In this document: positions 1-63,225 of the stretch, one piece after another
Numbering within the stretch: position 1 is the stretch's first letter
Layout of the letters: each line of letters begins with the position of its first letter
NCBI RefSeq assembly: GCF_013122565.1
Contig: NZ_CP053258.1
Source of the DNA: Escherichia coli
Lineage (GTDB): Bacteria; Pseudomonadota; Gammaproteobacteria; Enterobacterales; Enterobacteriaceae
Direction: 5' to 3' (one strand)
DNA length: 64,000 nt
The notes under the pieces: model-generated
What the model saw: only the letters and a program-made list of their open reading frames with translations
The model's database searches: none
Told to the model about the DNA's origin: nothing
Program-made: the position numbers and the translations under genes

Positions 1-3766
<3,766 letters not shown>

Positions 3767-4079
3767 GCTTACCTTCCCTGAACGAGCTAACATAAATGCG
3801 CCCTTTCTAGCACAGCGAAAAAATGTAAATCCTGATAGCAATATGATTGAAAATTAATAACTTTTCGTTAGGCAGTTTTGGGTGTGAGTTGCAAGAGGGG
3901 AGACTACTGAATTACTCAAGTTTTATAATCGAGGGGAAAATGGTGATGGCGTCCATAGCAAAACGCCCTCAACCATTAAGGTCGAAGGCGCTTAAGATGT
4001 CAAAAACCCGCTATCCGTTAAAAAGCAATGCTCAACTAAGGTCAGTGACATTGCGCTAAAAAAGCGAATTTTTAGAATT

Positions 4080-4155
4080 TGGCTCCTCTGACTGGACTCG
4101 AACCAGTGACATACGGATTAACAGTCCGCCGTTCTACCGACTGAACTACAGAGGA
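4080..4155 (-). tRNA. asnT: tRNA-Asn (GUU)
   Basis: Reverse complement of 4080..4155 is a 76-nt tRNA-Asn sequence ending in CCA, matching the recalled E. coli tRNA-Asn. Confidence 0.93.
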
Positions 4156-4255
4156 ATCGTGTGAACGGGGCGCATATTACTTAGCGGTACCTTGTCTGTC
4201 AACACTAAATTTCATAAGTCATTTCAATTGGTTAATTAATCTGCAAAGTTGTTAA

Positions 4256-5053
4256 TTAATGAACATTCGTCGCCGAAAACGAGTCTGTATCATTAGCGTG
4301 ATGCAGTCTCTGCAAAGGATCTTGTTGATAAAATTGGCAGAAACGTTGCCACAATGAAGGGAAACGAGGAGCAAAAAGTTCTGGGGCGCTAAAGAAATAT
4401 TCAGAAAGTACGGCAAAACATTCAGCAGGATCACTGGCAGCATAAGCATCAATGCTCGCCGCATTCTCGCCAACCAATTCGATTTCTTCCTGAATGTTGT
4501 TCATTGCAGCATGAAGATCGTGTTCCCAGCCAGCAACCTCACGCAACGGAATAAAGGGAACTCCGCTGGCGCGATCGCCGTTACGGGTGTCCAGCTTATG
4601 AGCGACTTCATGAATAATCAGGTTAAAACCAGAAGCATCAAAAGAATCTTGTATATCCAACCAGTTCAAAACGATAGGCCCTTGCTGCCAGCTCTGACCT
4701 GACTGAACAATACGTTGGTTATGCACCAGACCGATATCGTCTTCCCATTCATCATCGACCACAAATGGCGCAGGATAAATTAAGACTTCATGAAAACCAT
4801 CCAGCCATTCCAGTCCTAACTCCAGAACGGGTAGGGAAAATAGAAGTGCTATCCGGCAGCTTCTTAATGAATCCAGTTCAAAGCCCTGTAAAGGAACAAG
4901 CCGCTTTTGCTGTAAAAAACGTTCGGCAAGAGTGACTAATTTGCTTTGTTCCTGTTCCGTCAGACACGTTAAAAGGGGGATCGATAGTGCTTCCTGCCAG
5001 GGAAGGGCAGTTTGATGTGCTGATTCTTGTACTTTCCAGGGCCACTTAATCAT
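4256..5053 (-). CDS. mtfA: Mlc titration factor A (265 aa)
   Basis: ORF 4256..5092 (-) contains [14 protein letters not shown]...; start set at internal ATG 5053 to give the recalled 265-aa protein. Confidence 0.88.
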
Positions 5054-5146
5054 CGTTTTGCTCGCAAACTCGTCACTTGAACAAAATTGCACGGACAGGG
5101 ACTGTTAAAATGCCAAATTTCCTGGCATCATGGCAACCATCTGAAC

Positions 5147-5236
5147 GGAGAGATGCCGGAGCGGCTGAACGGACCGGTCTCGAAAACCGGAGTAGGGGCA
5201 ACTCTACCGGGGGTTCAAATCCCCCTCTCTCCGCCA
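5147..5236 (+). tRNA. serU: tRNA-Ser (CGA)
   Basis: 90-nt sequence GGAGAGATGCCGGAGCGGCTGAACGGACCGGTCTCGAAAACCGG...TCTCCGCCA read directly; long variable arm, CCA end. Confidence 0.93.
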
Positions 5237-5805
5237 CTTTATCAATGACTTATCTCCCGACTTCCCGCCTTGCTTTTCCTAAACAGAACAATCGTAGAAT
5301 ATTCTTGAAGGGTTAGATCGTCACTGTTTTCTGTTCGATACTGTGACATTCAGCACTTGATTCGCTATGGATCTGACAGGAAGGTTTCGAGCGAAAATGT
5401 GCAGTTATTCAGTCGTTTTCTTATCGCTCACCATTCTTCTTTTAGACATTCATCCTATGAAACTGCCGCAAAGTTGGTGGTGGGAACTGAAGTTGCGTAG
5501 AGAAGGGGTCAATAATTGAGCCAAAAAAGGAACGCGGCCGTCAGATTAAAGCCGCGGGACAAAGTCCATAATTTCCAAGAGTTGTTGAATTTCCCAGCTT
5601 TTTTGAAAGCCTTTGTATCATACTAACAAGTAAAAAAGGTTTAAATACCAAAATTAACCTGTATTTTTGATAAGTCTTACCATTGTACGATTTACACAGT
5701 TTCTGCTCCTCCTTGTTGATAGTGGAAAGAGTGCATTATGCACTTGCGTAAACATTTATGATGCGTTGATGTCCAGGGTTCACATTTCCTTGTCAGGGGA
5801 TCGAC

Positions 5806-6336
5806 TTATTTGCGGCGAGGCATCATTCGTAACAGAGTATTATCTTTCTGAATGTAGTGATGAAAGAGTGCTGCGCCAGCGTGAGCTGCGATTAAAAAGT
5901 AACCTATATTTGCCCAGGTTTCGTGAATATTTTTTATCAGTGCTTTAATTTCGCTGTTTGGGGTAACAAAGGGAGACACATTGAAACCAAGGAAACTCCA
6001 CGATTTTCCACTGTAAGCCATTAAAGCAATCCCCAGCAGAGGAAGCGCAAGGAAGGTTATATAAAGCATGATGTGCATTAGCGAAGCCGCTTTCATTTGC
6101 CAGGCAGGTGGCGGTGGCACAATAGAAGGATCACTATAACGGTGTTTTATAATCAGGCGTGAAAACATTAACACCCAAACGAATATACCCGCATTGTAAT
6201 GTGTTTCTCGCATCAGCAGATAAGTATTACTACCTTTAGGAAACCAGCCACGGAGTTCCATCGCGGCATAGGTTATTGCAACGAAAAGCAGCGTTATCCA
6301 ATGTAAATAAATTTGAGTTTTTGAGAATCGGTTCAT
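5806..6336 (-). CDS. yodB: Cytochrome b561 family membrane protein YodB (176 aa)
   Basis: ORF 5806..6366 (-) contains MNRFSKTQIYLHWITLLFV...; start set at ATG 6336. Confidence 0.85.
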   Translation of the reverse strand: MNRFSKTQIYLHWITLLFVAITYAAMELRGWFPKGSNTYLLMRETHYNAGIFVWVLMFSRLIIKHRYSDPSIVPPPPAWQMKAASLMHIMLYITFLALPLLGIALMAYSGKSWSFLGFNVSPFVTPNSEIKALIKNIHETWANIGYFLIAAHAGAALFHHYIQKDNTLLRMMPRRK

Positions 6337-6678
6337 TTTTGTAGCTCCTGTAATTTTCACAGTCAAGCTATCCCACGAACCTTAAAAATTCCTTATACAG
6401 ATGTGGTTTTAAGAATTTGTTATTTAAAAAATTGATAGTGCACATTGTAACCAGCCAATATAAGCAATGGCGAGAGCACAGGTATCTAACTCTGTTGGCC
6501 GTATTGTGTATGGAATCCGTTATTGGTTAACTCAATGCGGGTTAGCTTATTAATATACAGACACGTCATAGTGATGAGCGTGTCTGTAGCTAGCTTGCGT
6601 TCAGTGGCGTTTATGGATGCACCAGTGGCAGTTATGATGACTTACTAAAGCGGCATCGAGACGTTATCATGAGAATAC

Positions 6679-14958: not shown

Positions 14959-15050
14959 AAAAAAAAGCCGGCATCATGCCGGCCCAAAAAATATAAACAA
15001 GACGATAAAAGGCTAATAACAGGGTTATCATGACATAGAAATCAAAAAAG
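14959..15050 (-). ncRNA. rseX: Candidate small RNA, possibly RseX
   Basis: Minus-strand terminator: GCCGGC-ATCAT-GCCGGC hairpin (14967..14983) followed by an 8-10 nt U-run. RseX is recalled to lie between yedR and yedS. The 5' end is estimated from the recalled ~91 nt length, not seen. Confidence 0.3.
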
Positions 15051-23451: not shown

Positions 23452-23538
23452 AACACATCAGATTTCCTGGTGTAACGAATTTTTTAAGTGCTTCTTGCTT
23501 AAGCAAGTTTCATCCCGACCTCCTCAGGGTCGGGATTT
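23452..23538 (+). ncRNA. dsrA: DsrA small regulatory RNA
   Basis: 87-nt AACACATCAGATTTCCTGGTGTAACGAATTTTTTAAGTGCTTCTTGCTTAAGCAAGTTTCATCCCGACC(T)CCTCAGGGTCGGGATTT, with terminal hairpin and U-run. Confidence 0.9.
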
Positions 23539-43319: not shown

Positions 43320-44663
43320 ATGGCACAAGTCATTAATACCAACAGCCTCTCGCTGATCACTCAGAACAACATCAACAAAAACCAGTCTGCGCTGTCGACT
43401 TCTATCGAGCGCCTCTCTTCTGGTCTGCGCATTAACAGCGCTAAAGATGACGCTGCGGGCCAGGCGATTGCTAACCGCTTCACTTCTAACATCAAAGGTC
43501 TGACTCAGGCCGCACGTAACGCCAACGACGGTATCTCTCTGGCGCAGACCACTGAAGGCGCACTGTCTGAAATCAACAACAACTTGCAGCGTGTTCGTGA
43601 ACTGACCGTTCAGGCCACTACCGGTACTAACTCTGATTCTGACCTGTCTTCAATCCAGGACGAAATCAAATCCCGTCTCGATGAAATTGACCGCGTATCC
43701 GGTCAGACTCAGTTCAACGGCGTGAACGTACTGGCAAAAGATGGCTCGATGAAAATTCAGGTCGGTGCAAATGATGGTCAGACAATCAGCATTGATTTGC
43801 AGAAGATTGATTCTTCTACTTTAGGGTTAAATGGTTTTTCTGTTTCCAAAAATGCAGTATCTGTTGGTGATGCTATTACTCAATTGCCTGGCGAGACGGC
43901 AGCCGATGCACCAGTAACCATCAAGTTTGATGATTCAGTAAAAACTGATTTAAAACTGACCGATGCTTCAGGGTTAAGTCTGCATAACCTCAAAGATGAA
44001 AATGGTAATTTAACTAACCAGTATGTTGTACAGAATGGCGGAAAATCTTACGCTGCTACAGTCGCTGCCAATGGTAATGTTACGCTGAACAAAGCAAATG
44101 TAACCTACAGCGATGTCGCAAACGGTATTGATACCGCAACGCAGTCAGGCCAGTTAGTTCAGGTTGGTGCAGATTCTACCGGTACGCCAAAAGCATTCGT
44201 GTCTGTCCAAGGTAAAAGCTTTGGCATTGATGACGCCGCCTTGAAGAATAACACTGGTGATGCTACCGCTACTCCACCGGGAGCATCTGGGACAACAGTT
44301 GTCGCAGCGTCAATTCATCTGAGTACGGGCAAAAACTCTGTAGACGCTGATGTAACGGCTTCCACTGAATTCACAGGTGCTTCAACCAACGATCCACTGA
44401 CTCTGCTGGACAAAGCTATCGCATCTGTTGATAAATTCCGTTCTTCTTTGGGGGCGGTACAGAACCGTCTGAGCTCCGCTGTAACCAACCTGAACAACAC
44501 CACCACCAACCTGTCTGAAGCGCAGTCCCGTATTCAGGACGCCGACTATGCGACCGAAGTGTCCAACATGTCGAAAGCGCAGATTATCCAGCAGGCAGGT
44601 AACTCCGTGCTGTCCAAAGCTAACCAGGTACCGCAGCAGGTTCTGTCTCTGCTGCAGGGTTAA
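43320..44663 (+). CDS. fliC: Flagellin FliC (447 aa; H-antigen type not determined)
   Basis: MAQVINTNSLSLITQNNINKNQSALSTSIERLSSGLRINSAKDDAAGQAIANRF... conserved N- and C-termini (ends ...QVLSLLQG) flanking a divergent central domain. Confidence 0.93.
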   Translation: MAQVINTNSLSLITQNNINKNQSALSTSIERLSSGLRINSAKDDAAGQAIANRFTSNIKGLTQAARNANDGISLAQTTEGALSEINNNLQRVRELTVQATTGTNSDSDLSSIQDEIKSRLDEIDRVSGQTQFNGVNVLAKDGSMKIQVGANDGQTISIDLQKIDSSTLGLNGFSVSKNAVSVGDAITQLPGETAADAPVTIKFDDSVKTDLKLTDASGLSLHNLKDENGNLTNQYVVQNGGKSYAATVAANGNVTLNKANVTYSDVANGIDTATQSGQLVQVGADSTGTPKAFVSVQGKSFGIDDAALKNNTGDATATPPGASGTTVVAASIHLSTGKNSVDADVTASTEFTGASTNDPLTLLDKAIASVDKFRSSLGAVQNRLSSAVTNLNNTTTNLSEAQSRIQDADYATEVSNMSKAQIIQQAGNSVLSKANQVPQQVLSLLQG

Positions 44664-44707
44664 TCGTCGTAACCTGATTAACTGAGACTGACGGCAACGC
44701 CAAATTG

Positions 44708-44813
<106 letters not shown>

Positions 44814-44836
44814 GCGCAATTTGTCAGCAACGTGCT

Positions 44837-44860
44837 CCCCCGCCACCGGCGGGGTTTTTT
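44837..44860 (+). terminator. Rho-independent terminator after fliC
   Basis: CCCCGCC-ACC-GGCGGGG hairpin followed by TTTTTT. Confidence 0.6.
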
Positions 44861-44949
44861 CTGTCCGCAATTTACCGGTAACCCCCAAATAACCCCTCAT
44901 TTCACCCACTAATCGTCCGATTAAAAACCCTGCAGAAACGGATAATCAT

Positions 44950-44957
44950 GCCGATAA
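44950..44957 (+). promoter_or_regulatory. Sigma-28-type -10 element (GCCGATAA) upstream of fliA
   Basis: Exact GCCGATAA 26 bp upstream of the fliA GTG; no canonical -35 at 11-bp spacing, so promoter assignment is tentative. Confidence 0.35.
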
Positions 44958-44982
44958 CTCATATAACGCAGGGCTGTTTATC

Positions 44983-45702
44983 GTGAATTCACTCTATACC
45001 GCTGAAGGTGTAATGGATAAACACTCGCTGTGGCAGCGTTATGTCCCGCTGGTGCGTCACGAAGCATTGCGCCTGCAGGTTCGACTGCCCGCGAGCGTGG
45101 AACTTGACGATCTGCTACAGGCGGGCGGCATTGGGTTACTTAATGCCGTCGAACGCTATGACGCCCTACAAGGAACGGCATTTACAACTTACGCAGTGCA
45201 GCGTATCCGTGGCGCTATGTTGGATGAACTTCGCAGCCGTGACTGGGTGCCGCGCAGCGTGCGACGCAACGCGCGTGAAGTGGCACAGGCAATAGGGCAA
45301 CTGGAGCAGGAACTTGGCCGCAACGCCACGGAAACTGAGGTAGCGGAACGTTTAGGGATCGATATTGCCGATTATCGCCAAATGTTGCTCGACACCAATA
45401 ACAGCCAGCTCTTCTCCTACGATGAGTGGCGCGAAGAGCACGGCGATAGCATCGAACTGGTTACTGATGATCATCAGCGAGAAAACCCGCTACAACAACT
45501 GCTGGACAGTAATCTGCGTCAGCGGGTGATGGAAGCCATCGAAACGTTGCCGGAGCGCGAAAAACTGGTATTAACCCTCTATTACCAGGAAGAGCTGAAT
45601 CTCAAAGAGATTGGCGCGGTGCTGGAGGTCGGGGAATCGCGGGTCAGTCAGTTACACAGCCAGGCTATTAAACGGTTACGCACTAAACTGGGTAAGTTAT
45701 AA
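44983..45702 (+). CDS. fliA: Flagellar sigma factor sigma-28 (FliA)
   Basis: 239-aa ORF, GTG start, MNSLYTAEGVMDKHSLWQRYVPLVRHEALRL...; sigma-70 family regions 2-4. Confidence 0.92.
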   Translation: MNSLYTAEGVMDKHSLWQRYVPLVRHEALRLQVRLPASVELDDLLQAGGIGLLNAVERYDALQGTAFTTYAVQRIRGAMLDELRSRDWVPRSVRRNAREVAQAIGQLEQELGRNATETEVAERLGIDIADYRQMLLDTNNSQLFSYDEWREEHGDSIELVTDDHQRENPLQQLLDSNLRQRVMEAIETLPEREKLVLTLYYQEELNLKEIGAVLEVGESRVSQLHSQAIKRLRTKLGKL

Positions 45703-45747
45703 CGTCAGTAAATGCCGCACTTTAACTTTGACTACCAGGAGTTCTTA

Positions 45748-46299
45748 ATGATGGTGCAGCACCTGAAAAGACGGCCATTAAGCCGCTATCTTAAAGACTT
45801 TAAACACAGCCAGACCCATTGCGCGCATTGCCGTAAATTACTCGATCGCATTACCTTAGTTCGCGACGGCAAAATAGTGAATAAAATCGAGATTTCCCGC
45901 CTGGACACGCTGCTTGATGAAAATGGCTGGCAAACGGAACAAAAATCATGGGCGGCATTGTGCCGATTTTGCGGTGATTTACATTGCAAAACGCAGAGTG
46001 ATTTTTTCGATATTATCGGCTTTAAGCAATTTCTTTTTGAGCAAACTGAAATGAGCCCTGGTACGGTGCGTGAATATGTCGTTCGTCTGCGCCGTTTGGG
46101 GAATCATCTACATGAGCAAAATATTTCCCTCGATCAGCTGCAGGACGGTTTCCTTGATGAAATCCTCGCCCCGTGGCTGCCCACCACCAGCACCAACAAT
46201 TACCGCATCGCATTACGGAAGTATCAACACTATCAGCGTCAAACGTGTACCGGACTTGTGCAGAAATCCTCCAGCCTGCCTGCTTCTGATATATATTAA
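45748..46299 (+). CDS. fliZ: Flagellar regulator FliZ (183 aa)
   Basis: ORF 45712..46299 contains MMVQHLKRRPLSRYLKDFKHSQTHCAHCRKLL...; start set at ATG 45748. Confidence 0.88.
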   Translation: MMVQHLKRRPLSRYLKDFKHSQTHCAHCRKLLDRITLVRDGKIVNKIEISRLDTLLDENGWQTEQKSWAALCRFCGDLHCKTQSDFFDIIGFKQFLFEQTEMSPGTVREYVVRLRRLGNHLHEQNISLDQLQDGFLDEILAPWLPTTSTNNYRIALRKYQHYQRQTCTGLVQKSSSLPASDIY

Positions 46300-46386
46300 A
46301 TAAGAATAAGATGTAGCGGAGTTGTTTTTGTGTTTACAAACAATGGCTCTACACTGCAAACAGACATAACAACATTCGGGGTGAAT

Positions 46387-48278
<1,892 letters not shown>

Positions 48279-48292
48279 CTCCGGAAACGCTC

Positions 48293-48961
48293 ATGCAAGA
48301 AAGTATACAACTGGTTATTGATTCCTTGCCGTTCCTGCTGAAAGGGGCTGGGTATACGCTGCAACTCAGTATCGGCGGCATGTTTTTTGGCTTACTGCTA
48401 GGGTTTATTCTCGCGCTGATGCGCCTGTCGCCAATCTGGCCCGTGCGCTGGCTGGCGCGTTTTTATATCTCTATTTTTCGTGGTACACCGCTCATCGCAC
48501 AACTGTTTATGATCTATTACGGCTTGCCGCAGTTTGGCATCGAATTAGATCCCATTCCGTCAGCAATGATTGGTCTGTCGCTGAACACTGCCGCCTATGC
48601 CGCCGAAACACTGCGCGCCGCCATTTCTTCTATTGATAAAGGTCAGTGGGAAGCGGCAGCCAGTATTGGTATGACGCCGTGGCAGACCATGCGTCGCGCG
48701 ATTTTGCCACAGGCGGCGCGTGTGGCGTTGCCGCCGCTGTCGAACAGCTTTATCAGCCTGGTAAAAGATACGTCGCTGGCCGCGACAATCCAGGTGCCGG
48801 AGCTGTTCCGTCAGGCACAGTTGATTACCTCGCGTACGCTGGAGGTGTTCACCATGTATCTGGCGGCTTCGCTCATCTACTGGATCATGGCGACTGTGTT
48901 ATCGACGTTGCAGAACCATTTTGAGAATCAACTTAATCGCCAGGAGAGAGAACCAAAATGA
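48293..48961 (+). CDS. tcyL: L-cystine ABC transporter permease TcyL (YecS)
   Basis: 222-aa membrane ORF MQESIQLVIDSLPFLLKGAGYTLQLSIGGMFFG... Confidence 0.88.
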   Translation: MQESIQLVIDSLPFLLKGAGYTLQLSIGGMFFGLLLGFILALMRLSPIWPVRWLARFYISIFRGTPLIAQLFMIYYGLPQFGIELDPIPSAMIGLSLNTAAYAAETLRAAISSIDKGQWEAAASIGMTPWQTMRRAILPQAARVALPPLSNSFISLVKDTSLAATIQVPELFRQAQLITSRTLEVFTMYLAASLIYWIMATVLSTLQNHFENQLNRQEREPK

Positions 48962-49710
48962 GTGCCATTGAAGTTAAGAACCTGGTGAAAAAATTCCACG
49001 GTCAGACGGTGCTGCACGGTATCGACCTCGAGGTAAAGCCTGGCGAAGTGGTGGCAATTATCGGTCCGAGTGGTTCCGGCAAAACCACGTTGCTACGCAG
49101 CATAAATCTGCTGGAACAACCGGAAGCGGGAACCATCACCGTTGGCGATATCACTATTGATACTGCACGTTCATTAAGTCAGCAAAAATCGCTGATTCGC
49201 CAGTTGCGTCAGCACGTCGGGTTTGTCTTCCAGAACTTTAATTTGTTTCCGCATCGTACGGTGCTGGAGAACATTATTGAAGGGCCGGTGATCGTCAAAG
49301 GCGAACCGAAAGAAGAGGCCACGGCGCGCGCTCGCGAGCTGTTGGCGAAAGTTGGGCTGGCCGGTAAAGAAACCAGCTATCCACGTCGTTTGTCTGGCGG
49401 TCAACAGCAGCGTGTTGCGATCGCGCGTGCGCTGGCAATGCGTCCTGAGGTGATTTTGTTTGACGAGCCAACGTCGGCGCTGGATCCAGAGCTGGTGGGC
49501 GAAGTCCTGAACACCATCCGTCAGCTGGCGCAGGAAAAGCGCACGATGGTGATTGTGACGCACGAAATGAGCTTTGCGCGGGATGTTGCGGACCGGGCGA
49601 TCTTTATGGACCAGGGGCGGATAGTCGAGCAGGGGGCCGCAAAAGCGTTATTTGCCGATCCCGAGCAGCCTCGCACCCGCCAGTTCCTCGAGAAGTTTCT
49701 GCTGCAATAA
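48958..49710 (+). CDS. tcyN: L-cystine ABC transporter ATP-binding protein TcyN (YecC)
   Basis: 250-aa ORF with Walker A GPSGSGKTT and ABC signature LSGGQQQR; start overlaps tcyL stop. Confidence 0.9.
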   Translation: MSAIEVKNLVKKFHGQTVLHGIDLEVKPGEVVAIIGPSGSGKTTLLRSINLLEQPEAGTITVGDITIDTARSLSQQKSLIRQLRQHVGFVFQNFNLFPHRTVLENIIEGPVIVKGEPKEEATARARELLAKVGLAGKETSYPRRLSGGQQQRVAIARALAMRPEVILFDEPTSALDPELVGEVLNTIRQLAQEKRTMVIVTHEMSFARDVADRAIFMDQGRIVEQGAAKALFADPEQPRTRQFLEKFLLQ

Positions 49711-49939
49711 TAAGAAAAAATCCGCCCCGACGATTCGACAGTCGGGGCGGAACGCCATTTCAAGCGTGATAAAACTGTTTAACAAATCAGCATAACTCAT
49801 TAATAACATAAGAGAATGCGATGGCTTGCAAAAGTAATTCATTGTCTGAATAATATAAATTATATATAAATCTTATTTATGTGATAGTTTGAATTATCAT
49901 TATAAATGATACTCACTCTCAGGGGCGTTGCGGTTTACT

Positions 49940-50662
49940 ATGCAGGATACGGATTTTTTCAGCTGGCGTCGCACGATGCTGTTGCATTTTCAGAGGATGG
50001 AGGCCGCAGAAGAGGTCTACCATGAAATAGAGCTTCAGGCTCAGCTGCTGGAGTACGATTACTATTCGTTATGTGTTCGCCACCCGGTACCATTCACGCG
50101 ACCTAAAGTGGCTTTCTACACCAATTACCCTGAGGCGTGGGTTAGTTATTATCAGGCAAAAAACTTTCTCGCAATTGATCCGGTGCTGAACCCTGAAAAC
50201 TTTAGTCAGGGCCATTTAATGTGGAATGATGACTTATTCAGCGAAGCACAGCCGTTATGGGAAGCCGCGCGCGCACATGGTTTACGCCGCGGTGTCACTC
50301 AGTATTTAATGCTGCCAAACCGGGCGCTGGGCTTTTTGTCCTTTTCCCGTTGCAGCGCGCGCGAAATACCCATTCTTAGTGATGAACTGCAATTAAAAAT
50401 GCAGTTACTGGTGCGCGAAAGTCTGATGGCTCTGATGCGTTTAAATGATGAAATAGTGATGACGCCAGAGATGAATTTCAGCAAGCGCGAAAAAGAAATT
50501 CTGAGGTGGACGGCGGAAGGGAAGACATCAGCAGAGATAGCGATGATTTTGTCAATCTCTGAGAATACGGTCAATTTCCACCAGAAAAACATGCAGAAAA
50601 AAATTAATGCACCAAATAAGACCCAGGTTGCCTGTTACGCGGCCGCTACTGGCTTAATTTGA
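49940..50662 (+). CDS. sdiA: LuxR-family quorum-sensing regulator SdiA (240 aa)
   Basis: ORF 49928..50662 (TTG in track) contains MQDTDFFSWRRTMLL...; start set at ATG 49940; C-terminal LuxR HTH. Confidence 0.9.
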   Translation: MQDTDFFSWRRTMLLHFQRMEAAEEVYHEIELQAQLLEYDYYSLCVRHPVPFTRPKVAFYTNYPEAWVSYYQAKNFLAIDPVLNPENFSQGHLMWNDDLFSEAQPLWEAARAHGLRRGVTQYLMLPNRALGFLSFSRCSAREIPILSDELQLKMQLLVRESLMALMRLNDEIVMTPEMNFSKREKEILRWTAEGKTSAEIAMILSISENTVNFHQKNMQKKINAPNKTQVACYAAATGLI

Positions 50663-50729
50663 TCTCTTTTCTGTCCTGCGTGCCAGATGCAAAAACCGGC
50701 TGAAAGGCACGCTATCAGCCGGTTTTATA

Positions 50730-50954
50730 TTACTGACGGTAGGCTTGTTTAATTTGCTTAACCGTTTTGGAAAATACTGCAGCCTGGGTTTCGTCTTCGA
50801 TCAGCGCAAGCTGTTTTTCCATCTTTAACATCACGCGGCCCGCGTCAGCTTGTCCCATCGCCTGCAGCATCAGCGTCAGCATCGCTTTCAGGCAGGAGAC
50901 TTCATTTGCCAGTTCTTGATTATTCTCGGCAGTAGAAAAATCAGGCGTACTCAT
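50730..50954 (-). CDS. yecF: Small protein YecF (74 aa)
   Basis: [38 protein letters not shown]... Confidence 0.8.
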
Positions 50955-51411
50955 TTATTTTCCTCGTCATGTTGCAATGAAAATTTGCGGTGAAAAATGT
51001 TAAGGCGGCGGAGTATACCATAAGCTTTGCTAAAAATAGCAGTGGTTGTTTTTTGAGCGTGCCGTCAACGGTGCTATTAAATGCGTTAATATAATGACCA
51101 ATAAATATTTTTATCATGAATGTTTTTGCCCGTATTGTTCGGGTTAATTAATGTTACATATTCAGCGGGCTGATTTTCATTTTTGCTGAATAAAGGTAAT
51201 TTTTGTCACATTTCGTCGCAGGGCTTACTGTGAAACGATCCGGTAAGCCGTTGGTGACGGGCGTGACCATAACTGTGGACAATCGAATTGACAAAAACGA
51301 GAGAAAAATCGAATACCCACCATTTTTAACGTTTCAAAGTTGCAATAAAAACCGCTAATATACGAATGACTAACTATCAGTAGCGTTATCCCTATTTCTG
51401 GAGATATTCCT

Positions 51412-52068
51412 TTGATCAACGTTCTACTTGTTGATGACCACGAACTGGTGCGCGCAGGGATACGACGCATTCTGGAAGATATAAAGGGTATAAAAGTCGT
51501 CGGTGAGGCATCGTGCGGTGAAGACGCCGTTAAGTGGTGCCGGGCAAATGCCGTTGACGTGGTGCTAATGGACATGAGTATGCCGGGCATTGGCGGTCTT
51601 GAGGCGACGCGTAAAATCGCGCGTTCCACAGCTGATGTAAAAATCATCATGCTTACCGTCCATACAGAAAACCCTTTACCAGCGAAAGTCATGCAGGCCG
51701 GTGCTGCGGGCTACCTCAGCAAAGGCGCGGCTCCGCAGGAAGTCGTGAGTGCGATTCGTTCTGTCTATTCTGGGCAGCGTTACATTGCTTCTGACATCGC
51801 TCAACAAATGGCATTAAGCCAGATCGAACCAGAAAAAACAGAAAGCCCATTTGCCAGTTTGTCTGAACGTGAATTGCAGATTATGCTGATGATCACTAAG
51901 GGCCAGAAGGTCAATGAGATCTCAGAACAGCTCAATCTCAGTCCGAAAACGGTGAACAGCTACCGCTATCGAATGTTCAGTAAACTAAACATTCATGGCG
52001 ATGTTGAGCTGACTCACCTGGCAATTCGCCATGGTCTGTGTAATGCGGAGACATTATCAAGTCAGTGA
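51412..52068 (+). CDS. uvrY: Response regulator UvrY (BarA partner, LuxR/FixJ family)
   Basis: 218-aa ORF, TTG start, [39 protein letters not shown]... Confidence 0.9.
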
Positions 52069-53897
52069 GTGATCAGTTTGACGCAAAAGCGTTTTTAAAA
52101 ACCGTAACCAGCCAGCCAGGCGTTTATCGCATGTACGATGCTGGTGGTACGGTTATCTATGTCGGCAAAGCGAAAGACCTGAAAAAACGGCTTTCCAGCT
52201 ATTTCCGTAGCAACCTCGCTTCGCGCAAAACCGAAGCGCTGGTCGCCCAGATCCAGCAAATTGATGTAACGGTTACTCATACAGAAACCGAAGCGCTGTT
52301 GCTGGAACACAACTACATCAAACTCTATCAGCCGCGTTACAACGTTTTGCTACGCGATGATAAATCATATCCTTTTATCTTCCTGAGTGGTGATACCCAC
52401 CCGCGTCTGGCGATGCATCGTGGTGCAAAGCATGCCAAAGGTGAATATTTCGGCCCGTTCCCGAATGGCTATGCCGTACGTGAAACACTGGCGCTACTGC
52501 AAAAGATTTTCCCCATTCGCCAGTGCGAAAACAGTGTTTATCGCAATCGCTCGCGTCCGTGTCTGCAATATCAGATAGGGCGCTGTCTGGGGCCGTGCGT
52601 TGAAGGACTGGTGAGTGAAGAAGAATACGCTCAGCAGGTCGAGTATGTGCGCCTGTTTTTGTCTGGCAAAGATGATCAGGTGCTTACGCAACTGATTAGC
52701 CGTATGGAAACTGCCAGCCAGAATCTGGAGTTTGAAGAAGCGGCACGTATTCGCGACCAAATTCAGGCGGTGCGACGCGTCACCGAAAAACAGTTTGTTT
52801 CCAATACCGGCGACGACCTTGACGTTATTGGTGTGGCGTTCGATGCGGGCATGGCTTGTGTCCACGTATTGTTCATTCGTCAGGGCAAAGTGCTCGGCAG
52901 CCGCAGCTATTTCCCGAAAGTGCCTGGCGGTACGGAACTGAGCGAGGTGGTGGAAACCTTCGTAGGTCAGTTCTATTTACAAGGCAGCCAGATGCGCACC
53001 TTACCGGGTGAGATCCTGCTCGATTTTAATCTTAGCGATAAAACGCTGCTCGCCGATTCCCTTTCAGAACTGGCGGGACGCAAGATTAATGTTCAAACCA
53101 AACCTCGCGGCGATCGGGCGCGTTATCTGAAACTCGCGCGCACCAATGCGGCGACGGCCTTAACCAGCAAACTTTCGCAGCAATCTACCGTTCACCAGCG
53201 GCTGACAGCGCTTGCCAGCGTGTTAAAATTGCCGGAAGTGAAGCGGATGGAGTGCTTTGACATCAGCCATACCATGGGGGAACAAACCGTCGCTTCCTGT
53301 GTGGTGTTTGATGCTAACGGCCCGCTGCGTGCGGAGTATCGGCGCTATAACATTACTGGCATCACGCCGGGCGATGATTATGCGGCGATGAATCAGGTGC
53401 TGCGTCGGCGTTATGGTAAAGCCATCGACGACAGTAAGATGCCGGATGTGATCCTTATCGACGGCGGCAAAGGCCAGCTTGCGCAGGCGAAAAATGTCTT
53501 CGCCGAACTGGATGTCTCATGGGATAAAAATCATCCGCTGCTACTTGGCGTTGCCAAAGGAGCAGATCGTAAGGCTGGGCTGGAAACGCTGTTCTTTGAG
53601 CCGGAAGGTGAGGGATTCAGTTTGCCGCCAGATTCTCCCGCGCTGCATGTTATCCAGCATATTCGCGATGAATCACATGATCACGCGATTGGCGGGCACC
53701 GTAAAAAACGGGCGAAGGTCAAAAATACCAGTTCCCTGGAAACCATTGAAGGCGTCGGGCCAAAACGCCGGCAAATGTTGTTGAAATATATGGGTGGTTT
53801 GCAAGGTTTACGTAACGCCAGCGTCGAGGAAATTGCAAAAGTGCCGGGTATTTCGCAAGGTCTGGCAGAAAAGATCTTCTGGTCGTTGAAACATTGA
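52065..53897 (+). CDS. uvrC: Excinuclease ABC subunit C (UvrC)
   Basis: 610-aa ORF, GTG start overlapping uvrY stop; [43 protein letters not shown] (GIY-YIG). Confidence 0.92.
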
Positions 53898-53953
53898 TGT
53901 CTCTGTAGCAACATAGGGGTAATCTTACTGACAACAGATAGTTACCCGTCATT

Positions 53954-54502
53954 ATGCAATTTAATATCCCTACGTTGCTTACACTGTTCCGTGTCATCCT
54001 TATCCCATTCTTTGTATTGGTCTTTTATCTGCCTGTCACCTGGTCGCCGTTTGCCGCCGCGCTCATTTTCTGCGTCGCGGCGGTGACTGACTGGTTCGAT
54101 GGTTTTCTGGCACGCCGCTGGAACCAGAGTACCCGGTTTGGTGCTTTCCTTGACCCTGTCGCAGATAAAGTTCTCGTGGCTATCGCCATGGTGCTGGTAA
54201 CCGAGCATTATCACAGCTGGTGGGTGACCTTACCGGCGGCAACGATGATCGCCCGTGAGATTATTATTTCTGCGCTACGCGAATGGATGGCGGAGTTGGG
54301 TAAACGCAGTAGCGTGGCTGTCTCCTGGATTGGGAAAGTGAAAACTACTGCCCAGATGGTGGCGTTGGCCTGGCTGCTGTGGCGTCCGAACATTTGGGTT
54401 GAGTACGCCGGTATTGCACTTTTCTTTGTGGCTGCGGTACTGACTCTGTGGTCAATGTTGCAATATTTGAGCGCTGCGCGTGCAGATTTGCTTGATCAGT
54501 GA
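53954..54502 (+). CDS. pgsA: CDP-diacylglycerol--glycerol-3-phosphate 3-phosphatidyltransferase PgsA
   Basis: 182-aa [30 protein letters not shown]...; CDP-alcohol phosphatidyltransferase motif DWFDGFLAR. Confidence 0.9.
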
Positions 54503-54653
54503 TCGTTTCGACGCAATTTTCAGCAAACGATCAAAAGTGGTGAAAAATATCGTTGACTCATCGCGCCAGGTAAGTAGAATGCAACGCATCGAACGGCGGC
54601 ACTGATTGCCAGACGATAATAAAATCAAGTGATTAACTGATTGCTTGATGAAT

Positions 54654-54729
<76 letters not shown>

Positions 54730-54782
54730 GTTTAAAAGACATCGGCGTCAGCGGATGTCTGGCTGAAAGGCCTGAAGAATTT

Positions 54783-54856
54783 GGCGCGTTAACAAAGCGG
54801 TTATGTAGCGGATTGCAAATCCGTCTAGTCCGGTTCGACTCCGGAACGCGCCTCCA
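54783..54856 (+). tRNA. cysT: tRNA-Cys (GCA)
   Basis: 74-nt GGCGCGTTAACAAAGCGGTTATGTAGCGGATTGCAAATCCGTCTAGTCCGGTTCGACTCCGGAACGCGCCTCCA. Confidence 0.93.
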
Positions 54857-54868
54857 CTTTCTTCCCGA

Positions 54869-54955
54869 GCCCGGATGGTGGAATCGGTAGACACAAGGGA
54901 TTTAAAATCCCTCGGCGTTCGCGCTGTGCGGGTTCAAGTCCCGCTCCGGGTACCA
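54869..54955 (+). tRNA. leuZ: tRNA-Leu (UAA)
   Basis: 87-nt GCCCGGATGGTGGAATCGGTAGACACAAGGGATTTAAAATCCCTCGGCGTTCGCGCTGTGCGGGTTCAAGTCCCGCTCCGGGTACCA. Confidence 0.93.
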
Positions 54956-54997
54956 TGGGAAAGATAAGAATAAAATCAAAGCAATAAGCAGTGTCGT

Positions 54998-55024
54998 GAA
55001 ACCACCTTCGGGTGGTTTTTTTGT
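54998..55024 (+). terminator. Rho-independent terminator after the glyW-cysT-leuZ operon
   Basis: AAACCACC-TTCG-GGTGGTTT hairpin followed by TTTTTTGT. Confidence 0.6.
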
Positions 55025-55150
55025 GCCTGCAACTTGTCGTTACACCCTCCTTAATTTTTAATCACCGGCAAAGCCACTCAAAAAGTATCTCTGATACGGA
55101 CCGACATGTAAGATAGGTGCTGGCGAGTTGAGATCCACAAGGAAAAGCGT

Positions 55151-55816
55151 ATGAAAACGGGACCGTTAAACGAAAGTGAGTTGGAATGGCTGGACGATAT
55201 TCTGACCAAATACAACACTGACCACGCCATTCTTGATGTGGCGGAGCTGGACGGTTTATTGACGGCGGTGTTGAGTTCTCCGCAAGAGATTGAACCGGCA
55301 CAGTGGCTGGTTGCCGTATGGGGTGGGGCTGACTATGTGCCACGCTGGGCGTCAGAGAAAGAGATGACGCGCTTTATGAACCTGGCTTTTCAGCATATGG
55401 CCGATACCGCAGAGCGTCTGAACGAATTCCCGGAGCAGTTTGAGCCGTTATTCGGCTTGCGAGAAGTCGATGGCAGCGAGCTGACGATTGTTGAGGAGTG
55501 GTGCTTTGGCTATATGCGGGGCGTGGCACTTTCTGACTGGTCAACGTTGCCCGATTCGTTAAAACCAGCGCTGGAGGCGATTGCGCTGCACGGTACTGAG
55601 GAAAACTTCGAGCGGGTAGAGAAGATGTCGCCAGAAGCGTTTGAAGAGAGCGTAGATGCCATTCGACTGGCGGCGCTTGATTTACATGCGTACTGGATGG
55701 CCCATCCGCAGGAAAAAGCTGTTCAGCAACCGATCAAAGCAGAAGAGAAACCTGGGCGCAACGATCCTTGTCCGTGCGGCAGTGGTAAGAAATTTAAGCA
55801 GTGCTGCCTGCATTAA
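55151..55816 (+). CDS. yecA: UPF0149 protein YecA with C-terminal SEC-C metal-binding motif
   Basis: 221-aa ORF ending ...[19 protein letters not shown]. Confidence 0.88.
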
Positions 55817-55877
55817 GAGGTCACATTGGGTGTCAGCGTTAATTCTGGCACCCAATAAGGAATTTGAGGCTATCTGA

Positions 55878-57089
55878 TCACCCCACTTCTGGTAACAACC
55901 CTGCCGCAATCAAAAATTGCACGCTAATCACAGCAATACCACAGAGAAACACCACCACCAGCGCCGGACGACCACCTTTGACCCGGTAACCCGCCTGAGG
56001 ATTGTGCTTTCTGCTTTGCCAGGTCAACAGCGAAGGGATAATCAATGCCAGTACCGCCAGCGCCACACCGGCGTAACCCAGCGCCATCACAAATCCTCGT
56101 GGATAAAACAGTGCAAACGCCAACGGCGGCAGAAAGGTAATTGCACCAGTTTGCAATCGTCCACCAACGGTATTTGAACGCTGAAACAAATCAGCCAGAT
56201 AATCAAATAAGCCTAACGCAACGCCGAGAAATGACGTGGCGAGCGCTAAATCAGCAAATAAATGCACTGCCAGCTCAACATGCGGAGAGGCCACCATTTC
56301 GCGTAACGCCTGTAACAGCCCGTTTAATCCAGCATGATTAGCCAGCAATCCCATAAAGGTTGTTGAATCAATGCTGCCAAGCGTCGCCACCTGCCAGAAA
56401 ATATATGCCACCAGGGGGATCGCACTACCAGTTATAAACACCCAGCGTAGCTTACGAATGTTGCCATCCATATAACTGACAATGCTCGGCACGCTGCCGT
56501 GAAAACCAAACGACGTAAAAATCACCGGGATTGCAGACAGTGCCAGCCCCTGTTGCAATGGCAGGGTTAAAAGATTCACCTTGTGAATATGTGGAAGCAG
56601 CAGTACCAGCATTACCACCAGAAAAATAATTTTGGCGCTGAACAGAAAACGGTTAAATAAATCGACCAGCGAAGTTCCAACACAAACCACGCCACCGGCA
56701 ACAAAAGTGAACAACAGCACGCCAGCGGTTGCCGACATTGAAATACCTGTCCAGTCGCTGATGCTGGAGGCCAACAATTCACCGGCACCGCTGATGTATG
56801 CCGCAGTCAGAGCATACATTAAGAACATCATACTGAAGCCCGTCAGCCACTGACCGTAGCGTCCCAGATAGCGTTTTGCCAGCGTGCCCAAGCCGGTATC
56901 TGCCGGGACATGCTGGTACACCTCCAGCAGTAATAGCGCCGTGTAGCACATCAACGCCCAAAGCCCAATCAACAATATTAACGTGACGCTAAAACCAACA
57001 CCTGCCGCAGCCAGCGGCATTGCCAGCATACCTGCGCCAATTGTGGTTCCCGCCACGATAAAAACACTTCCCAGAGTTCTGTTTTTCAC
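55878..57089 (-). CDS. tyrP: Tyrosine-specific transporter TyrP
   Basis: 403-aa polytopic ORF, GTG start, [30 protein letters not shown]... Confidence 0.9.
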
Positions 57090-57277
57090 GCTTTCTTCTG
57101 TCCTGACGATCTTTATGAGTGATATCTGCGGCGCAGGTTAAGGCATTACGTCTGATTCGTCAAACCGACGTTACATATGATGTAAAGATAAATGTACAAT
57201 AAAAACATTCAGTCCTGCGCTGGCGCAAAGTCTTCATAAGCGGCAATCGGTACGCTAGGCTTTTTTGAGGAGGAACG

Positions 57278-57517
57278 ATGGACTCTATTCACGGTCACGA
57301 AGTGTTAAATATGATGATTGAATCAGGCGAGCAATATACGCATGCGAGTCTGGAAGCAGCGATTAAAGCGCGTTTCGGTGAACAGGCACGTTTTCACACC
57401 TGCTCGGCAGAAGGGATGACAGCGGGAGAGCTGGTAGCGTTTCTGGCAGCAAAAGGCAAATTTATACCTTCAGAAGAAGGTTTTTCGACCGATCAGAGTA
57501 AGATTTGCCGTCACTGA
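57278..57517 (+). CDS. yecH: Small protein YecH (79 aa)
   Basis: ORF MDSIHGHEVLNMMIESGEQYTHASLEAAIKARFGEQARFHTCSAEGM... Confidence 0.8.
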   Translation: MDSIHGHEVLNMMIESGEQYTHASLEAAIKARFGEQARFHTCSAEGMTAGELVAFLAAKGKFIPSEEGFSTDQSKICRH

Positions 57518-57553
57518 TTTGAAACGGCGGCAGAAACCTGCCGCCGGAGAGCA

Positions 57554-58051
57554 TTAGTTTTGTGTGTCGAGGGTAGAGAGTTCTTTGTCGATAAAATACA
57601 GACCTTCGCCGCTTTTGCCTGCCAGGCTTAATTTATCAATAATCGATTTGAACAGTTTCTCTTCTTCGTGCTGCTCAGAAACATACCATTGCAAGAAATT
57701 AAATGTTGGATAGTCCTGATTGGTCATTGCAGCATGAGCCAGTTCGTTAATTTTCTGCGTGATTAATTGTTCGTGTTTATAGGTTTCCTGGAATAATTCA
57801 TCAAGTGAGGAATATTCAGCAAACGGAGATTCAACGGTATTAATACGCGGTAAATTGCCGGTATCAGTCAGGTAATCAAACAGACGCTGCATATGTGTCA
57901 TCTCTTCCTGGGCGTGGCGGCGCAGGAACGCGGCAGCACCTTCGAAGGTATGATAGCTGCACCAGGCGCTCATTTGCTGATAAAGCAGTGAAGAGTACAG
58001 TTCCAGGTTCATCTGCTCATTAAGTTTTTCAATCATTTCTGGTTTCAGCAT
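57554..58051 (-). CDS. ftnA: Ferritin FtnA (165 aa)
   Basis: ORF 57554..58066 contains [31 protein letters not shown]...; start set at ATG 58051. Confidence 0.9.
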
Positions 58052-58222
58052 GATAGTGCTCCACAAAGGTTATATTTGTTGCTGTGGCGTCACTATAATT
58101 TGTTATTTTATTATTTGCAAAAGGTAAAATATAAACTTCAATTATTAAAAATACGAATGGGAATAAAACGCATTACCGCTATTTATTTAATCAGCGAAGA
58201 TCCCCCTCGCTGATTAAAACAT

Positions 58223-58546
58223 TTAGAGAAAGACAGGGAAGGCGGAATGATGGCACTGATATGACAAAGTGAATTCCGTATTCAAACATAAGGAACCCGC
58301 AAAGAGGCTACAGTTGCCTACTGGCTGACCAAAGGGGATAGCGTGGGTATAGCCTTCCTGCTGGCATGCGCGATCGGCGATCCCGCGACTGACATAACGA
58401 TCGGTATGGGCATGCTGCAAAAAAGCCTGGTCATAAACCAACCGTACAATACCTGTTGCCGCGTCAACTTCGCTCACATGGGCCTGGCGAGTAACCGTAC
58501 ACCCCGCCAGCGTTATTAATGAAAGAGTCAGAATCAGAAGTCTCAT
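58223..58546 (-). CDS. yecR: Lipoprotein YecR
   Basis: 107-aa ORF MRLLILTLSLITLAGCTVTRQ... (lipobox LAGC). Confidence 0.8.
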   Translation of the reverse strand: MRLLILTLSLITLAGCTVTRQAHVSEVDAATGIVRLVYDQAFLQHAHTDRYVSRGIADRACQQEGYTHAIPFGQPVGNCSLFAGSLCLNTEFTLSYQCHHSAFPVFL

Positions 58547-58711
58547 GGTCCAGCCAGAAGAGTAAGAGAAAGCACTATTTTACGCGTTACAGCGCTGCGA
58601 CAATGGCCGGAAAAGACGCCTGGCAGGCGCTATTTCTTGCCATCTGTAGGTGTCAGAAATAGGGGGGCTGTTTTTTTGATTATCATTTTTATAACATTAA
58701 AGGGGTATTTA

Positions 58712-58727
58712 TGTGATTTGTATCACA
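58712..58727. promoter_or_regulatory. CRP-type palindrome TGTGA-N6-TCACA upstream of azuC
   Basis: TGTGATTTGTATCACA read directly, about 80 bp upstream of the azuC ATG. Confidence 0.45.
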
Positions 58728-58809
58728 TAAAGATTGATTTTTGTGATGGTTGTCATATTATAAGCGCAAAGACAATAACACCTGTATAACAAATGGTCGG
58801 AGTGCCGCG

Positions 58810-58896
58810 ATGAAACTGCGCAAGATCCTGAAAAGTATGTTCAATAACTATTGCAAGACGTTCAAAGACGTACCGCCTGGCAATATGTTCCGATAA
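58810..58896 (+). CDS. azuC: Small protein AzuC (28 aa), encoded on the dual-function AzuCR RNA
   Basis: Hand-translated ATG..TAA: MKLRKILKSMFNNYCKTFKDVPPGNMFR; immediately followed by a terminator. Confidence 0.8.
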   Translation: MKLRKILKSMFNNYCKTFKDVPPGNMFR

Positions 58897-58897
58897 C

Positions 58898-58926
58898 AAA
58901 AAACCTGCTCCGGCAGGTTTTTTTGT
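58898..58926 (+). terminator. Rho-independent terminator of the azuC transcript
   Basis: AAAACCTGC-TCCG-GCAGGTTTTTTTGT hairpin plus U-run directly after the azuC stop. Confidence 0.6.
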
Positions 58927-59010
58927 GTCCTGATGATGGTGGATGTGACTATCGCTGAAGATGTGAAGCCGCTACTATAACGGCTTTCAAAATGCTATCA
59001 GGAGTTTACG

Positions 59011-59262
59011 ATGTCCCAGCCGCTGAATGCCGATCAGGAACTGGTTTCTGATGTGGTTGCTTGCCAGTTGGTTATCAAACAAATTCTGGATGTTCTCGAT
59101 GTAATCGCGCCCGTTGAAGTTCGCGAAAAAATGTCCAGCCAGCTGAAGAATATCGACTTTACTCACCATCCCGCCGCCGCAGACCCGGTCACCATGCGGG
59201 CAATCCAAAAAGCCATCGCGCTGATTGAACTCAAGTTTACCCCACAGGGCGAATCCCATTAA
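59011..59262 (+). CDS. yecJ: Small protein YecJ (83 aa, DUF2766)
   Basis: [44 protein letters not shown]... Confidence 0.8.
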
Positions 59263-59340
59263 AAAACCGCTGCTTCAAAAAGATGAGGCAGCGGTTTCTC
59301 AAAAACTTCATCGGCGCAATGCATTAGCGCCGATGTATGA

Positions 59341-59844
59341 TCAATGCAGCTGATGCGACACGACATTCAGAACATGTTGGTCGGTCTGCACAGGGCACAT
59401 ACCCGCAAGTTTCGCACTGCGCACCTCTTCAAGAATGGTTTGCAGCAACAGGCCATCATGCTGCTGTTCTTTTTCCAGATCGCGCAGGAAATTGACGGTT
59501 GAATCATCATTCAGTTCTTTCGCTTCATCGGCTAACTGCGCCAGCGTGCTTGAACGTTGCTCGTATTCTTCCATCGTTTTTTGGAACAGTTCTTCCAGAG
59601 AGTTCAGTTTTTCACCGGGAACATCAATGGCTTTAACGATGGGGGTAGCGCCGACACTCTTCATAAAGTTAAACATGCGCATCATTTGGGTCACATTACT
59701 CTGTGCCTGGGCGCGTAGGAAAGTGGCGGTGCCGTTCAGACTCTGTTCAGAACACCAGTTACTCAGGTGAAGGTAGAGATTGGATGCGTAAAACTCGCGG
59801 TTCATTTGAGAGTTGAGTTTGAGAAGCATTCCAGCGGTTGCCAT
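59341..59844 (-). CDS. ftnB: Ferritin-like protein FtnB
   Basis: 167-aa [51 protein letters not shown]... Confidence 0.88.
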
Positions 59845-60640
59845 ACCTAATATCCTTATATCCAGAAGTGGAGAGGTGCAAGATAAATCAAAGCACCATA
59901 ATTACTGTTTGCAGAATAATTCCTTTCTGCCGGTCCGAAATGTGATCGTGGAGTCAATTCTGACGATGATCTGAAATAAGAATAACGTGTGTACGGGTAT
60001 AAGAAAATCCTTAAATCATCAAGTTTATATTTTTTTACATTTCATTGATGAAATCAATGTAACTGCAATGAATTTTAATGATAGTGCTTTTTGTATCTTG
60101 TTGATATCAATCGATAGATTTAAATTCATGATGAAGCAATGATTTTATAAAACGTTTTTTCATTTTTGCGAGATGGCTCGCATTATATGTGTTCTGTTAA
60201 TTAATGAGCCCAGTGATAATTAATGGCGAAATGAATGACGCGCATTTCCCACATCTTTGAGTTGCGGTTATTACGCCATTTCAAAAGCTCAACGTCAGGT
60301 AATGCGGCCTATTGACTGGTTAAAAAGAAGACATCCCGCATGGGTACCAAAGACAACAAGGACTTCCAGGCTAATCTTATGGATTAATCTGCTGTGCACT
60401 CGACAATTTGTCTGACAAATAAGTATTTCCTTATGTCTTTTCCCGCTAAATTTATGCACGTTCTCACTGTAATTCTGCGATGTGATATTGCTCTCCTATG
60501 GAGAATTAATTTCTCGCTAAAACTATGTCAACACGGTCACTTATCTTTTAGTTAAAAGGTAATGCTTTGTTTTCCGATTAATTTAACGAAAGTCATTCGT
60601 TTTTGCCCTACACAAAACGACACTAAAGCTGGAGAGAACC

Positions 60641-61630
60641 ATGCACAAATTTACTAAAGCCCTGGCAGCCATTGGTCTGGCAGCCGTTATGTCACAATCC
60701 GCTATGGCGGAGAACCTGAAGCTCGGTTTCCTGGTGAAGCAACCGGAAGAGCCGTGGTTCCAGACCGAATGGAAGTTTGCCGATAAAGCCGGGAAGGATA
60801 TAGGGTTTGAGGTTATTAAGATTGCCGTGCCGGATGGCGAAAAAACATTGAACGCGATCGACAGCCTGGCTGCCAGTGGCGCAAAAGGTTTCGTTATTTG
60901 TACTCCGGACCCGAAACTCGGCTCTGCCATCGTGGCGAAAGCGCGTGGCTACGATATGAAAGTCATTGCCGTGGATGACCAGTTTGTTAACGCCAAAGGT
61001 AAGCCAATGGATACCGTTCCGTTGGTGATGATGGCTGCGACCAAAATTGGCGAACGTCAGGGCCAGGAACTGTATAAAGAGATGCAGAAACGGGGCTGGG
61101 ATGTCAAAGAAAGCGCGGTGATGGCGATTACCTCCAACGAACTGGATACGGCTCGTCGCCGTACTACGGGGTCTATGGATGCGCTGAAAGCTGCCGGATT
61201 CCCGGAAAAACAAATTTATCAGGTACCTACCAAATCTAACGACATCCCGGGGGCATTTGACGCTGCCAACTCAATGCTGGTTCAACATCCGGAAGTTAAA
61301 CATTGGCTGATCGTCGGTATGAACGACAGCACCGTACTGGGCGGCGTACGTGCAACCGAAGGTCAGGGCTTTAAAGCGGCCGATATCATCGGTATCGGTA
61401 TTAACGGTGTGGACGCAGTAAGCGAACTGTCTAAGGCACAGGCAACCGGCTTCTACGGTTCCCTGCTGCCAAGCCCGGATGTACATGGTTATAAGTCCAG
61501 CGAAATGCTTTACAACTGGGTAGCAAAAGGTGTTGAACCGACCAAATTCACCGAAGTTACCGACGTGGTGCTGATCACGCGTGACAACTTTAAAGAAGAA
61601 CTGGAGAAAAAAGGTTTAGGCGGTAAGTAA
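60641..61630 (+). CDS. araF: L-arabinose ABC transporter periplasmic binding protein AraF
   Basis: 329-aa ORF MHKFTKALAAIGLAAVMSQSAMAENLKLGFLVKQPEEPWFQTEWKFADKAG... Confidence 0.92.
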   Translation: MHKFTKALAAIGLAAVMSQSAMAENLKLGFLVKQPEEPWFQTEWKFADKAGKDIGFEVIKIAVPDGEKTLNAIDSLAASGAKGFVICTPDPKLGSAIVAKARGYDMKVIAVDDQFVNAKGKPMDTVPLVMMAATKIGERQGQELYKEMQKRGWDVKESAVMAITSNELDTARRRTTGSMDALKAAGFPEKQIYQVPTKSNDIPGAFDAANSMLVQHPEVKHWLIVGMNDSTVLGGVRATEGQGFKAADIIGIGINGVDAVSELSKAQATGFYGSLLPSPDVHGYKSSEMLYNWVAKGVEPTKFTEVTDVVLITRDNFKEELEKKGLGGK

Positions 61631-61645
61631 TTTGCCGGAAAAATT

Positions 61646-61668
61646 CCCCTCTGCATGATGCAGAGGGG
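61646..61668 (+). other. Intra-operon perfect stem-loop between araF and araG
   Basis: CCCCTCTGCAT-G-ATGCAGAGGGG perfect 11-bp inverted repeat 16 nt after the araF stop; no U-run follows, so not a classic terminator. Confidence 0.5.
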
Positions 61669-61699
61669 GTGTGAACGACCAGTGATTCACGGAGACGTT

Positions 61700-63214: not shown

Positions 63215-63225
63215 GTAAGGAGAGT

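Follow-up and report, generated by a model that had tools for sequence, protein, structure and literature searches.

The window, by which we mean the whole 64-kb stretch of DNA analysed here, carries a tRNA-Asn gene that lies between mtfA and serU on one side and yeeJ on the other. A sequence-only reading of this DNA had taken the 3' flank of this gene to be an empty attachment site for islands, with about 310 bp separating the end of the tRNA gene from yeeJ. The gap is exactly 313 bp. The features of the locus are the following:

1..3766, minus strand: 5' part of yeeJ, a cryptic gene for an inverse autotransporter adhesin; the start codon ATG is at 3766-3764 and the gene runs past the window start
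3767-3955, minus strand: sequence preceding yeeJ, presumed to hold its promoter and 5' UTR; ~190 bp, AT-rich
3767-4079, minus strand: native asnT-yeeJ intergenic spacer, without mobile-element DNA; 313 bp, 40% G+C
3961-3993, minus strand: hairpin B, with a 14-bp stem, a 5-nt loop, and a 3' arm entering UUUU
4001-4074, minus strand: hairpin A, long and imperfect, closed by A5/U5 pairing; it starts 6 nt past the tRNA end
4079-4095, minus strand: 17-bp att core (attB), CCAGTCAGAGGAGCCAA; it comprises the final 16 nt of asnT and one base of the flank
4080-4155, minus strand: asnT, tRNA-Asn with anticodon GTT and an encoded CCA end (ARAGORN; Rfam tRNA, 72.6 bits)
4174-4202, minus strand: promoter-like site of asnT, TTGACA, 17-nt spacer, TAATAT (consensus scan only, 10/12 matches)
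4256-5053, minus strand: mtfA (yeeI) (Pfam Peptidase_M90, 6e-59; in RefSeq, mtfA genes of 798 nt occupy this position)
5147-5236: serU, tRNA-Ser (CGA) (ARAGORN)

Its upstream neighbours, mtfA and serU, and its downstream neighbour, yeeJ, identify the tRNA-Asn copy as asnT rather than as asnU, asnV, or asnW. This gene order is established by Pfam, by the tRNA calls, and by synteny with RefSeq genomes, from whose annotations of syntenic loci the start of mtfA (at MIKWPWK) is inferred. Among the asn tRNA genes, the 64-kb window covers asnT alone; asnU, asnV, and asnW are located beyond the window start, and the genome may carry HPI or pks islands at those copies or elsewhere. The sequence of asnT is identical (76/76) across the 8 aligned strains in which the gene is intact. 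Its 3' end is at position 4080 on the minus strand, and the downstream flank therefore heads to lower coordinates, towards yeeJ.

The yeeJ frame extends over 1,255 codons inside the window without a stop, and the protein starts with MATKKRSGEEINDRQ. Pfam identified the domains IAT_beta (4.8e-113), Big_1, and Invasin_D3, and in syntenic E. coli loci RefSeq annotates the position as yeeJ or as 'Ig-like domain-containing protein'. An earlier study noted that yeeJ directly follows asnT, which is often used for insertion (PMC5595812). A Shine-Dalgarno-like motif, GGAAGG, can be read at 3772-3777 before the start of the gene, and the 64 nt closest to yeeJ show no unusual structure (z -0.06). The sequence-only reading had spoken of a yeeJ promoter region next to asnT. 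The region upstream of yeeJ is indeed present, but its promoter was assumed, and our scan of the spacer (3767-4079) for minus-strand sigma-70 sites gave no good match for one. The lack of such a match in the spacer is consistent with the yeeJ promoter being reported as silent in the laboratory (PMC5595812). Judging from the sequence, this promoter would lie in the spacer's distal portion.

The spacer and hairpins downstream of asnT

The spacer is poorer in G+C than the window (40% versus 49%). We aligned asnT, the spacer, and the start of yeeJ in a set of strains including K-12 (DH5alpha), O157:H7, L73, MEW, EC590, PK5074, and 129130. The spacer is collinear with that of K-12, O157:H7, L73, MEW, EC590, and the others, with a mean column identity of 97% and no indel longer than 1 nt, so it holds no scar and conceals no remnant. 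When compared with K-12, it is 97.4% identical, and point substitutions are the sole differences. The spacer haplotype of the window is rare: it was found at an identity of at least 99% in 41 genomes. Among the RefSeq matches listed, none has a feature annotated beneath the spacer. The search of positions 3000-6000 against Rfam, with E-values up to 1, gave no match within the spacer. It also returned weak sX4 and plastid matches, which overlap serU, are far under the gathering scores, and were rejected.

The flank is free of mobile DNA yet not featureless. The fold of the whole spacer is not unusual (z -0.32), and two local hairpins alone stand out. They make up the first ~120 nt of the asnT flank, and each is followed by a U-run. 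Hairpin A has a folding energy of -21.1 kcal/mol (z -2.97) and is followed by 5 U; 1 of 200 shuffled sequences folds equally well. Hairpin B reaches -22.8 kcal/mol (z -5.85), is followed by 4 U, and is equalled by none of the 200 shuffles. A stricter scan for the terminator consensus passed neither of them. On the basis of these predicted folds, hairpin B is a probable intrinsic terminator of asnT, and hairpin A may be its first terminator or else a structure of the 3' trailer. The two together would probably act as tandem intrinsic terminators of the tRNA gene.

Across 9 strains the stem of hairpin B is conserved, and the few substitutions between them do not form clean compensatory pairs. 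At position 3986, within this stem, the minus strand of the window reads U, as opposed to C in each of the eight other strains of the alignment. This window-specific C>U change turns a C-G pair into G-U, and the pairing is kept. Inside hairpin A, positions 4043-4051 of the spacer (ATGTCACTG) match the internal positions 44-52 of asnT; this 9-nt match falls outside the att core and is no better than expected by chance (E=13).

The att core and the occupation of asnT

The 17-mer CCAGTCAGAGGAGCCAA is the direct repeat that bounds HPI/ICEKp (PMC2801613 Table 1; bioRxiv 10.1101/098178). Its exact reverse complement lies at 4079-4095, over the 3' end of the tRNA-Asn gene. We searched the 64-kb window for the 17-mer TTGGCTCCTCTGACTGG, allowing up to 3 mismatches, and found a single match, at 4079-4095, for a chance expectation of 0.09. 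The sequence-only reading had reported no att-like repeat and had proposed looking for a duplicate of the asnT 3' end. Suffixes of the tRNA gene of 12-30 nt have no second copy in the 64-kb window with up to 4 mismatches, apart from three matches at 4 mismatches, more than 30 kb away, that we judged to be due to chance. Similarly, a general repeat search over 3300-4700 gave short families at chance level only. The absence of an integrase, also claimed in that reading, was upheld. The best tblastn match of the UTI89 HPI integrase to the 64 kb has an E-value of 0.67, and no integrase or transposase is annotated in the 24 kb of strain 23CRST027 that are syntenic with the window. Neither a partial repeat of the tRNA end nor integrase remnants were found in 3767..4079. 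The traits of an HPI-occupied locus, i.e., a P4-type integrase and ybt/irp/fyuA by the tRNA 3' end, are missing from the window. Instead, the native flank comes directly after the tRNA gene, without integrase or cargo genes.

We compared the window with 5,426 complete genomes of E. coli from RefSeq. The junction is uninterrupted in 2,678 of them (49%) when one uses a junction-centred query (3880-4280, at least 80% covered), and in 2,579 when one uses a longer query (3300-4700, at least 80% covered). A chimeric query made of the integrase, asnT, and mtfA of UTI89 (at least 80% covered) revealed a P4-type integrase joined to asnT, mostly that of HPI, in 2,065 genomes (38%). The sequence-only reading had named asn tRNA genes as known integration sites of pathogenicity islands in E. 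coli. The spacer is present in 3,005 genomes and absent from the remaining 2,421. This absence fits the right-border deletion of the common E. coli HPI, which reaches into the backbone (PMC2606025). In interrupted genomes, among the matches inspected, the homology to the window ends at 4075-4079, i.e., at the tRNA 3' end. The proportions of empty and of integrase-joined sites, together with the number of genomes lacking the spacer, may serve as a baseline.

The comparison with individual loci gives the same picture. K-12, O157:H7, and the HPI-negative ECOR strains show the same order as the window: mtfA, asnT, a 313-bp spacer, and yeeJ. In the empty loci of K-12 and O157:H7, the tRNA and the 17-bp core are identical to those of the window and the spacer is collinear. 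In the HPI-negative ECOR strains, the asnT locus was described as intact and without any trace of the HPI (PMC2606025). The HPI-occupied genomes of UTI89 and ATCC 11775 share with the window the tRNA, the mtfA side, and the point of recombination, namely the 3' end of the tRNA. However, the tRNA gene is followed in HPI-occupied genomes by an integrase and ybtS/X/Q, which the window lacks. In UTI89, for example, asnT precedes a P4-type tyrosine integrase (a pseudogene in the record), ybtS, ybtX, and ybtQ, which identify the HPI.

Other elements use the same site. JNE151685 has an islet of ~6.5 kb at asnT, with integrase and HTH genes, and FDAARGOS_1337 has a different island there, with DUF2169/DUF4150 genes and an integrase junction of ~83% DNA identity. 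The core of both is shared with the window. In JNE151685, the tRNA end is repeated over 17 nt (TCCAGTCAGAGGAGCCA) just before the spacer on the yeeJ side; this repeat is attR, and the full spacer is kept beside it. Whereas these two genomes carry an integrase and HTH or DUF2169/DUF4150 cargo, the window has one copy of the core and no cargo. Finally, the ICEKp/HPI elements of Klebsiella and Yersinia have a 17-bp direct repeat identical to the core of the window, but their flanking genes are different and integration takes place at any one of several asn tRNA genes.

History and role of the asnT-yeeJ junction

We conclude that the interval between asnT and yeeJ is almost certainly an ordinary chromosomal junction, free of islands, with an intact, single-copy attB and its native flank. 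The description of the site as empty was thus correct: the core is single, the flank is native and collinear with that of empty strains, and occupied genomes break at the end of the tRNA gene. The empty state of asnT is common and already described in the literature. Its value is that of a typing fact, since it means that no HPI or other islet occupies the usual integration point of E. coli. It is indicative of a lineage that has no yersiniabactin at asnT and has retained the 5' end of yeeJ and its upstream region.

The core at 4079-4095 is the point of recombination for the P4-family tyrosine integrases of the yersiniabactin HPI and related islets. The integrase of an incoming island recombines attP with attB at the 17-bp core, whose sequence is identical in the two. 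Upon integration, island DNA rebuilds the tRNA 3' end, and the original tRNA end is shifted to the far side, where it forms attR next to the native flank with its hairpins and yeeJ. As for the window, this exchange has either never happened or been exactly reversed. The scheme comes from established knowledge on tyrosine-recombinase islands and is supported by the junctions seen in occupied genomes. As far as one can tell from its sequence, the asnT site could still accept an island.

A reversed exchange implies past occupation of the site, by the HPI or by some other islet at asnT, followed by its restoration through precise excision, mediated by an integrase and an excisionase. Site-specific excision regenerates an attB identical to one that was never occupied, and is thus compatible with the clean core and the collinear spacer. 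Furthermore, excisable islets with both repeats intact do exist at asnT, as in JNE151685. However, the common E. coli HPI has no right-hand repeat and cannot excise (PMC2606025). Because of this, and because half of the species is empty, as fits an ancestral condition, we regard past excision as very unlikely. The HPI-negative ECOR strains were themselves judged never to have carried the HPI (PMC2606025), and the sequence of the window gives no positive sign of excision. A different possibility is that the spacer is a scar concealing the degraded remains of an island, e.g., a piece of its integrase gene or part of an att repeat. One could invoke the low G+C of the spacer, the 9-nt match to the tRNA gene, and a 70-codon ORF on the plus strand inside the spacer (3847-4059), but the probability of this scenario is practically negligible. 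The spacer can be aligned with that of K-12 and other empty strains at every position, the tblastn search for an integrase was null, and the 9-nt match is of the kind expected by chance and not in the att core. The ORF has no Pfam match and no annotation among the RefSeq matches listed, and we rejected it as a gene.

The remaining explanation adds to the empty site rather than competing with it: the tRNA-proximal flank would be a functional RNA, either a stable fragment of the 3' external transcribed spacer or a leaky terminator that lets the asnT promoter drive yeeJ. We find it unlikely. It would account for two unusually stable hairpins directly after the tRNA, for a spacer without a sigma-70-like promoter for yeeJ, and for the increased activity of a yeeJ reporter in a pnp mutant, given that PNPase works on RNA 3' ends (PMC5595812). 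Yet the spacer has no match in Rfam even at E-values up to 1, and a terminator is the simplest explanation for a hairpin and a U-run after a tRNA gene. We hold it decidedly unlikely that the ~120-nt trailer of asnT yields a stable tRNA-derived spacer RNA or allows read-through from the strong tRNA promoter to aid the expression of yeeJ. If it did, the role of the trailer would tie the reported control of yeeJ by PNPase to the turnover of tRNA trailers, and the insertion of an island at asnT would cut yeeJ off from the input of the tRNA promoter.

Other features of the window

The 3' flank of serU is also unoccupied (5147-5805): the 3' end of the gene is not repeated in the window, and yodB is found 570 bp further on. 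In JNE151685, a lambdoid prophage of ~38 kb lies between serU and yodB, with its integrase adjoining serU. The cytochrome b561 gene yodB (ORF 5806-6366, minus strand) is part of a 995-bp segment (5684-6678) that is present in the window, 23CRST027, and FDAARGOS_1337, and in whose place MEW and UTI89 have ~221 bp. This segment is a presence/absence polymorphism beside serU.

The best identities to the window among the 5,426 genomes are 98.0% for positions 1-24000, 98.4% for 24001-46000, and 99.0% for 44001-64000. The best matches are mostly one piece per segment, fully collinear in order, and each segment has a different strain as its best match. The lineage of the window is either unsampled or a recombinant mosaic.

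The small RNAs DsrA (23452-23538, plus strand, 100.2 bits) and RseX (14960-15049, minus strand, 94.1 bits) were both found at their expected positions. The glyW-cysT-leuZ cluster (Gly GCC, Cys GCA, Leu TAA) is at 54654-54955, and the 3' end of leuZ is unique in the window. The 3' trailer of leuZ is a known sRNA sponge in K-12. Queries taken from 24001-64000 matched a median of 24-28 places per genome, with at least 40 pieces in more than 1,300 records, which indicates that this part of the window may hold short dispersed repeats, REP-type elements or similar.
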